IMG/VR virus record: IMGVR_UViG_2868238732_000001
Coordinates: 48,913-112,912 of that record
DNA from: a virus
DNA: 64,000 bases
Direction: 5' to 3' (one strand)
Part shown: one piece after another, positions 10,372 to 13,549 of the stretch
Layout: each line of letters starts with the position of its first letter
How positions within the stretch are numbered: position 1 is the first letter of the stretch
Notes under the pieces: generated by a model
What the model was told of the DNA's origin: nothing
The model's input: only the letters and a program-made list of their open reading frames with translations
Databases searched by the model: none
Program-made: the position numbers and the translations under genes

Positions 10372-10863
10372 ATGGGGAAAACACGTAAAGGCAAAGATAT
10401 AACAGATAAAGTTTTTGAAAGACTTACAGCAATAGAGCCTACAGAAATTCGGAAGGATGCAAATATTGTATGGAAATGCAAGTGCAAATGTGGAAATGAG
10501 ACTTTCGCCACTATGCGTGATTTGAAAGATGGAAGGGTTAGAAGTTGTGGCTGTATAGCCACGGAACTTGCAAAAGAGAATGCTATAAAAAACATGGCAA
10601 AATTTAAAAAGAATAATTGTATAGCAGGGACAAGGCTTGATATTGTTAAGGGGAGTATGCCGAGAAGGAAAAATGCTACTGGCTACAAAGGCGTTTATCG
10701 CAAATACGATAGATATGTTGCTAGCATTATGTTCCAGGGCATACGATACTCTTTAGGTCATTATGATAAAGTTGAGGATGCTGCTAAGGCACGAAAAATA
10801 GCTGAAGAAAAATTATATGGGGATTTTCTTGAATGGTATGAGTCAGAATATAAAAATAAATAG
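10372..10863 (+). CDS. AP2-domain protein with N-terminal WxCxCxCG...SCGC zinc module (related to HNH-AP2 endonucleases)
   Basis: FERLTAI...WKCKCKCGN...SCGC followed by TGYKGV...Y.ASI...YSLGHY...EDAAKARK.AE. No HNH motif is visible. Confidence 0.8.
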   Translation: MGKTRKGKDITDKVFERLTAIEPTEIRKDANIVWKCKCKCGNETFATMRDLKDGRVRSCGCIATELAKENAIKNMAKFKKNNCIAGTRLDIVKGSMPRRKNATGYKGVYRKYDRYVASIMFQGIRYSLGHYDKVEDAAKARKIAEEKLYGDFLEWYESEYKNK

Positions 10864-11217: not shown

Positions 11218-11246
11218 TTGACAATAGAATAATAATGATATAGAAT
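11218..11246 (+). promoter_or_regulatory. sigmaA promoter of the MazF-TPR locus
   Basis: TTGACA-17bp-TAGAAT, with a variant of the recurrent motif in the spacer. Confidence 0.65.
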
Positions 11247-11702: not shown

Positions 11703-12641
11703 GTGGAAAAAGTTATAGTTAGAAGGTCTGATATTTTTGAGGTTCAATTAAAAGGTGAAGGGAATCTCCTTCATGGAAAACATCCGGTTCTAGTTTTAAG
11801 TTGCCAAGTGTCAAATAAATTTAGTGACTTGATAAATGTAGTTCCATTAACTTCCACCACTAATAAAGACAACCCATCAAACGTATTAATAGGAACAGAA
11901 TGTGGATTAAAATGGGAATCCGCGATACTTACTAACCAAGTACAAACAATTTCAAAAAGTAATATTTTATTCAAAATAGGATTTGTAAACCTACAAAAAA
12001 TGCAGGAGGTTGAAAGAGTGTTAATGAATCAACTAGGAATTAAGAATAATTGGGGAGACTTGAAACTATATCAGATTTACGAGAAGAATAGAATGGAAAT
12101 CAGAATGGCCAAGTGTCAAGAAGATTACGAATTGTTGAGACAGTTATCAGAAAAATATTTAAAAAACTTATATGAAATGGGCCGCGTAATACAGGGTACA
12201 GAAATACATGCAGAACTAGAGTGGGCAAATTTTCATCTAGCACTAGCATTAAAGAAAAATGGTCAAATTTATGAAGCTTATGATGTAGCTAAAAAATCGT
12301 TAACTTTTAGTACAACAATAAATAGTGAGTATATTTATACCTGCTGGATGGTTGGAAGCTTGTGCATAGAGTTGGGTGATGATTTTGTGTTAGAAGGATG
12401 CGAGATGTTTGAAAAGTGCATTACATTTTATGATCAGATTAAAGAGGAAAGATATAAAATATTATCTCAGTTCAATAAAGCAAAAATACTAAAGAGGGTT
12501 CCTGAGATGCAAGCATGTATTAAAAGTTATAAAGATACTAGATTTAAACCGATGCTTTGTAGTTTTTCAGATATGGAAAAAAGTGAAGTCATCTTAGAAC
12601 TTCAAAAAGAATTAGACGACATCAAAAAATTAGTAGCCTAA
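11703..12641 (+). CDS. PemK/MazF-like domain fused to a TPR (RRNPP-like peptide receptor) domain
   Basis: Residues ~5-113 follow the PemK pattern (RSDIFEVQL...HPVLVLS...N.FS..INVVPLTS...S.IL.NQVQTISK...KIG.V...M..VE..L...LG). The C-terminal ~190 aa are amphipathic TPR-like helices (ANFHLALALKKNGQIYEAYDVAKKSL; CWMVGSLCIELG...GCEMFEKCI). Confidence 0.8.
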   Translation: MEKVIVRRSDIFEVQLKGEGNLLHGKHPVLVLSCQVSNKFSDLINVVPLTSTTNKDNPSNVLIGTECGLKWESAILTNQVQTISKSNILFKIGFVNLQKMQEVERVLMNQLGIKNNWGDLKLYQIYEKNRMEIRMAKCQEDYELLRQLSEKYLKNLYEMGRVIQGTEIHAELEWANFHLALALKKNGQIYEAYDVAKKSLTFSTTINSEYIYTCWMVGSLCIELGDDFVLEGCEMFEKCITFYDQIKEERYKILSQFNKAKILKRVPEMQACIKSYKDTRFKPMLCSFSDMEKSEVILELQKELDDIKKLVA

Positions 12642-12700: not shown

Positions 12701-12844
12701 ATGAAGATTACAAAAAGAATTGCAGCAGTAGGGTTAGGCATAGTTATAATGGGAGGTTTATTTGCTAGTAGCACTAAACTAATAACACAAAAAATAAACG
12801 TGCCGACAATAAATGTCGCTACAATCGACCCACCAACTCATTAA
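12701..12844 (+). CDS. Secreted signalling propeptide (47 aa; Phr/AimP/Qsp-like), predicted mature end ...TIDPPTH
   Basis: AGGAGG RBS. Basic N-terminus MKITKR, hydrophobic core IAAVGLGIVIMGGLFA, and a short C-terminus ending in DPPTH. It lies immediately downstream of a TPR protein. Confidence 0.8.
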   Translation: MKITKRIAAVGLGIVIMGGLFASSTKLITQKINVPTINVATIDPPTH

Positions 12845-12868
12845 AGAAGGGGATAATCCCCTTCTTTT
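12843..12868 (+). terminator. Intrinsic terminator closing the receptor-peptide unit
   Basis: AAAGAAGGGG-ATAAT-CCCCTTCTTTT. Confidence 0.9.
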
Positions 12869-12898
12869 CTAAAAAAGAATCATAACTATAAAATAAAT

Positions 12899-13207: not shown

Positions 13208-13549
13208 ATGGTAATAATGATATTAATAGAAGAAATGAATAAAATAGAAATAGAGAATTTATGTTTCAAACATGGCTTCTCTTGGGATAAGATTGGAGAA
13301 TATATTAGAATACAAAGTAAGAGAGACACATGGTATATAAAGGATATAAACCACGATGGAAGACTAATAGAGCTAGAGCATCAAAACAAATATAGAGATG
13401 CAAGGTTTCATTCACAAGGCAAGCATGAGAATTTAAAGAATATCTTTAAATCTATAGAAAGCCATGACCATAGAGAGGAATTAGGGCACAGAAATAATAA
13501 ACTGACTAGAATAACTAATACATTCAAACTACTTGGCTTATACAATTAA
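13208..13549 (+). CDS. Hypothetical protein
   Basis: ORF with AAGGAAGG RBS. Confidence 0.75.
   Translation: MVIMILIEEMNKIEIENLCFKHGFSWDKIGEYIRIQSKRDTWYIKDINHDGRLIELEHQNKYRDARFHSQGKHENLKNIFKSIESHDHREELGHRNNKLTRITNTFKLLGLYN

Follow-up and report, generated by a model that had tools for sequence, protein, structure and literature searches.

The stretch of DNA analysed here, referred to as the window (64,000 nucleotides, positions 48913-112912 of the 126,022-base provirus record G000, a large Clostridium prophage), contains a gene for a 312-aa protein in which a MazF-like toxin domain is joined to a helical domain of the tetratricopeptide repeat (TPR) type. When the toxin domain is aligned with other MazF proteins, most of the residues that have ever been implicated in catalysis are replaced in it and in its nearest relatives, and the replacements have then been frozen. 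It is highly probable that an RNA-binding pocket has here been re-tooled under selection and that it belongs to the output domain of a phage receptor that senses a peptide. An earlier note on the window had drawn attention to one of these replacements, a His at the place where MazF-type endoribonucleases (RNases) carry their catalytic Arg. This change proved to be real but it does not stand alone, being one of five coordinated changes that also comprise L22, L23, N60 and N78.

Pocket residues of the MazF-fold domain

The protein and the positions discussed below are encoded as follows.

11703..12641, + strand: MazF-like/TPR fusion gene, 312 aa, with a GTG start and an AGGTGG ribosome-binding site
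11703..12041, + strand: MazF/PemK-fold domain, residues 1-113
11766..11771, + strand: L22-L23, where the canonical GSEQ loop has E20-Q21 (from the S. aureus MazF alignment)
11781..11786, + strand: H27-P28, with His instead of the catalytic Arg of the RP motif; H27 is the codon CAT at 11781-11783, and residues 25-33 read GKHPVLVLS
11850..11855, + strand: T50-S51 of VPLTS (ACT TCC), the catalytic Thr and its neighbour, both kept
11880..11882, + strand: N60, aligned to the conserved His (H59 in B. subtilis MazF and in MoxT)
11934..11939, + strand: N78-Q79, with Asn aligned to the conserved Glu (E78) and Q79 kept
12054..12638, + strand: TPR-like helical repeat domain, residues 118-312, nine helices (secondary structure and VIA matches)

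Residues 7-110 match the Pfam profile PemK_toxin (PF02452) over profile positions 1-108 of 109, with 64.9 bits against a cut-off of 23.1 (E 9e-18), and PHROGs returned the family 'MazF-like growth inhibitor' (phrog_1936, E 5e-21). Scans with PADLOC and NCBIfam gave weak MazF matches and nothing more. An AlphaFold model built from 12 homologues (mean predicted local distance difference test score, pLDDT, 82.5) consists of a beta-barrel from residue 1 to 113, followed by nine helices from 118 to 311. The predicted barrel superimposes on the B. subtilis MazF-RNA complex 4mdx with a template modelling (TM) score of 0.88 and a root-mean-square deviation of 1.8 over 114 columns (Foldseek), and it matches MazF-mt1 with a Z-score of 18.2 (VIA); the identity of the solved cellular MazFs to the window domain is only about 30%.

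For the C-terminal part, no Pfam TPR model scored above its cut-off on the 312-aa protein. All neighbours of the helical part in the Atlas are TPR proteins, and VIA matched it to LGN/Pins (Z 16.8), RapI (Z 15.3), PlcR (Z 14.9) and the phi105 Rap protein with peptide (Z 13.5). The matches to RapI, PlcR and phi105 Rap are not above those to unrelated TPR proteins such as LGN/Pins.

A phmmer search against the chains of the PDB aligned GKHPVLVL to GVRPVVII of S. aureus MazF (4of1, 4mzm) and VPLTS to AAITG of the same protein; therefore the catalytic Arg is matched by H27 and the catalytic Thr by T50. This bears out the earlier note, which had read the CAT codon at 11781 in the context GKHPVLVLS, as it indeed occurs there, as the equivalent of the Arg and had pointed out that the Thr of VPLTS is kept; the fold match to 4mdx concurs. 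Its statement that this Arg and this Thr form the catalytic pair of MazF-type RNases agrees with the literature: mutation of either Arg25 or Thr48 severely reduces activity, and mutation of both abolishes it (PMC7354611).

To place these residues in a wider family, the N-terminal domain was scored against 1.84 billion cluster representatives, and the nearest 150 were aligned together with the family, giving 169 domains. Residue numbers of canonical MazF are those used in the papers, and equivalences come from the alignment to S. aureus MazF. At position 27 the alignment has Arg in 137 domains and His in 28; the latter share (28/169) comes from a search seeded with the His type and is not a frequency for the whole PemK family, all samples of the analysis having been seeded with a query of either the His or the Arg type. 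The five changed positions are occupied as follows in an inner clade of 16 His-type domains, described below, and in the 137 Arg-type domains.

L22 (canonical E20): Leu in 14/16 of the inner clade; Ile in 45, Val in 32 and Glu in 30 of the Arg-type domains
L23 (canonical Q21): Leu in 16/16; Gln in 120/137
H27 (canonical R25): His in 16/16; Arg in 137/137
N60 (canonical H59): Asn in 16/16; His in 128/137
N78 (canonical E78): Asn in 15/16; Glu in 133/137

Residues held in common with canonical MazF are G25, P28, N38, S41, P48, T50, S51, P58, G68, S73, Q79 and K85. We scanned all 115 positions of the domain and found no clade-specific invariant Arg or Lys, so that an Arg placed elsewhere in the site, which would have spoken against the earlier note, does not compensate for the missing one.

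The replacements are conserved. H27, P28, T50 and S51 are invariant in the 12 full-length homologues (39-65% identity), and the conservation of the His that the earlier note had wished to see checked is thus complete in this set (12/12). Among the 28 His-type domains the equivalents of T50 and of S51 are Thr and Ser, respectively, in 27 each; over H27-P28 and T50-S51 together, the count per residue is 27-28 of 28. Three loci use CAT for the His and the fourth (L005) uses CAC, and the codons for Pro28, Thr50 and Ser51 vary synonymously, Ser51 being encoded by TCC, AGC or TCA. Within the family the mean pairwise identity is 61% for the MazF part versus 52% for the TPR part, and 24 of 113 positions are invariant in the former versus 26 of 195 in the latter. 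Because the replacement residues are themselves strictly conserved, the pocket appears to have been rebuilt under selection, not broken. What decay looks like can be seen in the second domains of the tandem MazF proteins P0137, P0144, P0147 and P0150, where the Arg, the Thr-Ser pair and often Q79 are lost together; the inner clade keeps T50 and S51, so this pattern is not seen there.

Relatives and gene setting

A likelihood tree was calculated from 167 domains with the five trait columns masked; it is unrooted. In this tree one clade unites 23 of the 28 His-type domains (support of 90 in the Shimodaira-Hasegawa-like approximate likelihood ratio test, SH-aLRT), and the full set of H, L, N and N at positions 27, 23, 60 and 78 marks the inner clade of 16 (SH-aLRT 98). 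The seven other members of the His clade have Leu or Ile at position 23 and keep E78, and they also keep H59 with the exception of P0147. Five His-type domains lie outside the main clade, four of them with a hydrophobic residue at position 23. Altogether Gln is absent from position 23 in 27 of 28 His-type versus about 15 of 135 Arg-type domains. Six changes have to be assumed on the tree, only one of which is forced by well-supported branches, and the independent-pairs test for H27 with L23 gave a single robust pair. With only one such pair, repeated co-evolution of H27 and L23 is not demonstrated.

Every member of the inner clade is tied to a TPR domain. Twelve are short fusions like that of the window (among them P0014, which is 117 aa long and a fragment of a fusion like P0007), three are long fusions with a 60-aa helical insert (P0012, P0015, P0017) and one is a split form (P0013). 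The changes to N60 and N78 are limited to these 16 TPR-linked domains. The split form lies on a 122-kb phage contig (L005:3956-5281). There the gene of the His-type MazF, which has a helical tail, stops at a TAA, and an ATG directly after it opens the gene of a TPR protein (178 aa) that has a ribosome-binding site of its own, GAGGAGG; this protein has 37% identity to the TPR part of the window protein and is followed by a 48-aa propeptide gene ending in VDPPGS.

A helical tail of about 60-70 aa after the MazF domain occurs in many phage proteins of 170-210 aa, of the Arg type as well as of the His type, and ends in a conserved E-(L/F)-K-x-Y-C...Y motif. It is carried by P0013, P0016, P0018, P0020, P0021 and P0027 and corresponds to the insert of P0012, P0015 and P0017 (alignment columns 135-192). 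The 312-aa form of the window has lost this tail, which the longer fusions still carry.

By alignment, His at the Arg position marks a subclade wider than the fusions, one that includes a stand-alone toxin with a ribbon-helix-helix antitoxin. In the metagenome locus L016:2722-3360 a gene matching the antitoxin model RHH_1 (E 3e-9) is directly followed by a gene for a 123-aa His-type PemK protein (GPHP) without the equivalents of H59 and E78. Judged from the gene order, this corresponds to the layout of a live type II toxin. As a separate observation, L008:2980-3348 (likewise L006 and L007), on a high-GC contig, encodes a 122-aa His-type MazF with the motif ELRGMHP in which H59 and E78 are kept; it adjoins a signal-peptidase-like gene, and no antitoxin open reading frame (ORF) is visible upstream.

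A search with a narrow alignment of tailed MazFs found 33 viral loci, all of the Arg type and none with a downstream match to the TPR family of the window. Megablast of the locus against GenBank phages had no match, tblastn against GenBank phages returned N-domain matches only (at most 37% identity) and no fused form, and scans of genome contigs found no relative. Tandem MazF-MazF proteins, their second domain often degenerate, were met as P0039, P0106, P0109, P0131, P0137, P0144, P0147 and P0150, and P0155 is a 381-aa fusion of MazF with Bro-N and KilAC (antirepressor).

The tree being unrooted, the order of the changes is one that we infer. A tailed phage MazF beside a lysogeny module would probably have come first and the changes from R to H and from Q to L next; H59N and E78N would have been acquired last, when the domain became linked to a TPR sensor and a secreted peptide.

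The surroundings of the fusion gene contain the following elements.

11218..11246, + strand: promoter-like site TTGACA-17-TAGAAT, found in a consensus scan with 11/12 matches, likely start of the operon
12701..12844, + strand: secreted-propeptide candidate, 47 aa, from the ORF list, with an MKITKR start, a hydrophobic core and a TIDPPTH end
12848..12873, + strand: intrinsic-terminator-like hairpin with T-run, putative end of the operon

In the 47-aa ORF basic residues at the N-terminus are followed by a hydrophobic core, which is the layout of a signal peptide, and the tail reads TIDPPTH. Counterparts in the same place on three other phage contigs end in IDPPGH (L001), IDPPIN (L002/L003) and VDPPGS (L005), so that a predicted secreted propeptide ending in (I/V)DPPxx is present at every locus read (window, L001, L002/L003, L005). 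Judged from gene order and predicted domains, the layout is that of a receptor-propeptide pair of the RRNPP/arbitrium type, with a MazF barrel in place of the helix-turn-helix (HTH) domain of AimR or PlcR; MazF and PemK are not mentioned in the large RRNPP surveys consulted. What is shown is the equivalence of the residues, how they are conserved and covary, how the domains are arranged, and that the peptide gene is conserved.

The PemK domain is present as a single copy in the whole 126-kb provirus, and a match to the MazE family (PF04014) was found nowhere in it. As to an adjacent antitoxin, the 59-aa ORF that lies upstream matched no family and did not prove to be conserved in L001 or L002. 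Downstream of the MazF-TPR-peptide module follow a conserved ORF of 100-113 aa and a tyrosine recombinase. This ORF of about 100-113 aa, without a family match, is conserved in three phages (window 13208-13549; L002:7373-7699; L056:3089-3391) and separates the MazF/peptide module from the genes of the recombinase/YopQ type. About 0.8 kb upstream of the operon, window positions 10372-10863 hold a gene for an HNH endonuclease (phrog_374, E 2e-27). The sequence GGACC/GGTCC (GGWCC) is nearly absent from the provirus (1 found versus about 31 expected under a Markov model, both strands), which looks like the avoidance of a restriction site.

Cleavage, binding and other readings

The earlier note had considered an attenuated or re-specified RNase, a non-cleaving RNA-binding regulator and a decoy, and its interpretation as a whole is partly supported. 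The reading that we tentatively favour, and to which we give somewhat less than an even chance, is that of a His27/Thr50 endoribonuclease whose activity is lowered or altered and which is gated by the TPR domain together with the (I/V)DPPxx peptide. The domain would still bind single-stranded RNA in the usual groove, and His27 and Thr50 would act at the scissile phosphate with His27 in the role of the Arg. The resulting enzyme would be weaker than canonical MazF or would differ from it in sequence preference. Its control would be exerted not by an antitoxin but by the TPR domain, fused or, in one relative, encoded by the next gene, which would sense the secreted peptide. With the Arg and acidic residues lost, antitoxins of the MazE type should also hold the pocket less firmly. 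RNA binding, cleavage, peptide gating and antitoxin insensitivity are thus properties that we infer.

Retention of activity is suggested by the alignment, in which Thr50-Ser51 and the RNA-contact scaffold are strictly kept. Histidine is the usual general acid/base in RNases. In MazF the catalytic Arg has been described as a general acid/base (PMC7354611, PMC11394972), and by analogy two active natural variants would also favour activity, namely M. tuberculosis MazF4 with Lys for Arg and MazF7 with Ser for Thr (PMC7354611). The His-type PemK protein behind the RHH_1 antitoxin gene in L016 may be taken as a further analogy pointing the same way.

Several observations weigh against a cleaving enzyme. 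The L016 pair is a distant one that lacks H59 and E78 in a manner peculiar to itself, which makes it a poor guide to the inner clade. Four or five residues that are 86-97% conserved in Arg-type relatives have all changed together, and exchanges of E to N and H to N would keep shape and hydrogen bonds and lose proton transfer, which would fit a binder equally well. In experiments R25A abolishes activity in several MazFs (PMC7354611, PMC8634880); in MazF-Da, R25A is inactive and G18A and E20A are nearly inactive (PMC8634880). Our literature search found no characterised MazF with His at the Arg position. In a scan of 5-mers of the provirus no clear strand-specific avoided word emerged that could mark an RNase site; TACAT on the sense strand occurs 102 times versus 129 expected (z -2.35), which is not significant among 1024 words. 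Finally, no antitoxin partner was found beside the gene in the window, L001 or L002, nor a MazE in the provirus.

We considered a second possibility, that the output domain is a pseudo-nuclease which grips a specific single-stranded RNA, its acid-base residues having been swapped for neutral look-alikes. A peptide-controlled receptor of this kind would regulate a transcript by binding (acting on translation, stability or termination) and not by cutting. We regard this as possible, an RNA clamp being nearly as likely as a His-type RNase. The pattern of replacement agrees with it: R25, H59 and E78 have become H, N and N and E20-Q21 has become L-L, while P28, T50, S51, S73, Q79 and K85 of the scaffold are invariant. 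According to a secondary citation (PMC8887465), His59 and Glu78 were proposed as the acid-base couple of MoxT, with Gln21 and Gln79 as stabilisers; for the MazFs of B. subtilis and E. coli the Arg/Thr model has since taken the place of this proposal. The confinement of N60 and N78 to the TPR-linked clade suggests that the domain took on a new task as it gained its receptor, and the missing conserved antitoxin gene would be easier to tolerate if the domain were not toxic. On the other hand, His is catalytically competent and Thr50 is kept; moreover, N60 and N78 may alter only specificity if the Arg/Thr model holds, and no candidate target RNA was identified for such a clamp.

A third explanation is that the domain binds proteins as a peptide-responsive decoy, pairing with host MazF or soaking up host MazE or a phage inhibitor like AimX or YosL. 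Such an output would resemble the arbitrium system of phi3T, which works through protein-protein contacts around host MazE and MazF (PMC10769878), and MazF acts as a dimer whose fold is intact in our model. The changes, however, lie in the catalytic and RNA-binding pocket. They remove the Arg contacted by acidic residues of MazE: in MazE-mt3, Glu62 forms a salt bridge with the equivalent catalytic Arg25 (PMC11394972). As this is how MazE holds the Arg, a His-type pocket should bind MazE-like antitoxins less well, which speaks for a protein independent of the host antitoxin and makes a decoy that titrates MazE less likely. Considering in addition the absence of a MazE-family gene from the provirus and the low identity to solved cellular MazFs, we find a decoy improbable. 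That the domain is a decayed toxin, functionless itself and kept as a dimerising scaffold for the TPR receptor, would account for the loss of several residues needed for catalysis in canonical MazFs, yet it is hardly credible in view of the invariance of the replacement residues, the better conservation of the MazF part than of the TPR part and the separate, still maintained gene in L005.

The His-type RNase and the RNA clamp would both form part of a broader picture, in which a phage communication receptor has a peptide-gated, RNA-acting output of MazF fold instead of DNA binding and the Arg/His/Glu chemistry was rebuilt when the domain was harnessed to the TPR sensor; taken as a whole this picture is speculative and rather unlikely. 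If it is true, a free toxin would have become an RNase or RNA clamp under the control of a ligand, able to do without an antitoxin and indifferent to the MazE of the host. As the remodelled form is found only in large Clostridium phages, and there only together with a TPR protein presumed to sense a peptide, it bears on how phage signalling may be wired to control of lysis and lysogeny at the RNA level. Beyond phages, MazF catalysis is taught as the work of an Arg/Thr pair, and a conserved His subclade with four co-varying changes amounts to a natural experiment on this RNase fold, which could show how it is converted into a regulated or non-cutting RNA-binding module.

Comparison with known systems

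The solved toxins B. subtilis MazF/EndoA, S. aureus MazF and B. anthracis MoxT (4mdx, 4mzm, 4hke) resemble the window domain in fold (TM 0.88, Z 17-18) at about 30% identity. They share with it the N-terminal RR-x-D-I motif, the GxxP turn, the PxTS strand with the catalytic Thr, and S73, Q79 and K85. The window protein differs in having H for the Arg, L-L for E-Q in the beta1-beta2 loop and N for both H59 and E78; furthermore, its gene lacks an adjacent antitoxin and a TPR domain of 195 residues is present at its C-terminus. In MazF4 and MazF7/mt9, too, one residue of the catalytic pair is naturally replaced in an otherwise normal MazF (PMC7354611). These two proteins, however, have been shown to be active and still offer a long basic side chain or a hydroxyl at the replaced position, whereas in the window protein, whose activity is putative, His is accompanied by four more changes in the pocket.

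The nearest relatives in sequence are the phage-borne tailed proteins of PHROG 1936 (E 5e-21), for example CST027 of the Clostridium phage c-st. CST027 and the protein of L056 differ from the window protein in having the canonical Q, R, H and E residues and in lacking a TPR domain and a peptide gene. In c-st (CST027-CST030, L028:2953-6354) and in L056:2480-4820 the tailed MazF lies just upstream of lysogeny genes of the yopQ/yopR type, and it may be that large Clostridium phages regularly carry MazF-like genes in this region.

Rap-Phr systems (RapI, and Rap of phage phi105) are built, as the window protein is predicted to be, from a TPR peptide sensor with an N-terminal output domain that does not bind DNA (Z 15.3 and 13.5), and Rap, too, has no HTH. 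The output domain of Rap is a three-helix bundle and that of the window protein a barrel of the toxin fold, and the TPR match of the window protein to Rap is no better than that to unrelated TPR proteins.

The closest parallel in biology is the arbitrium system of SPbeta and phi3T. In both cases a TPR receptor gene of the phage, putative in the window, is followed by a gene for a secreted propeptide with a conserved C-terminal tail, in a prophage of about 126 kb and just upstream of a lysogeny region containing a recombinase, and a functional link to MazF-type RNase activity, presumed for the window protein, is common to both. The window receptor differs in having a MazF-fold domain where an HTH would be expected, and the phage supplies the MazF module itself, in covalent union with the sensor; neither an aimX nor a MazE-like gene was found. 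AimR is a DNA-bound antiterminator, in agreement with a remark on termination in the earlier note, and in phi3T AimX, YosL and phi3T_93 act on the MazE-MazF pair of the host to control lysis and lysogeny (PMC10769878). Lysogeny of phi3T is promoted by the catalytic activity of MazF and this effect is lost in the T48A mutant (PMC10769878). Because of this parallel an output at the RNA level is plausible for the window receptor. If our broader picture were correct, the route of phi3T from AimR through AimX to host MazF would be compressed here into a single polypeptide.

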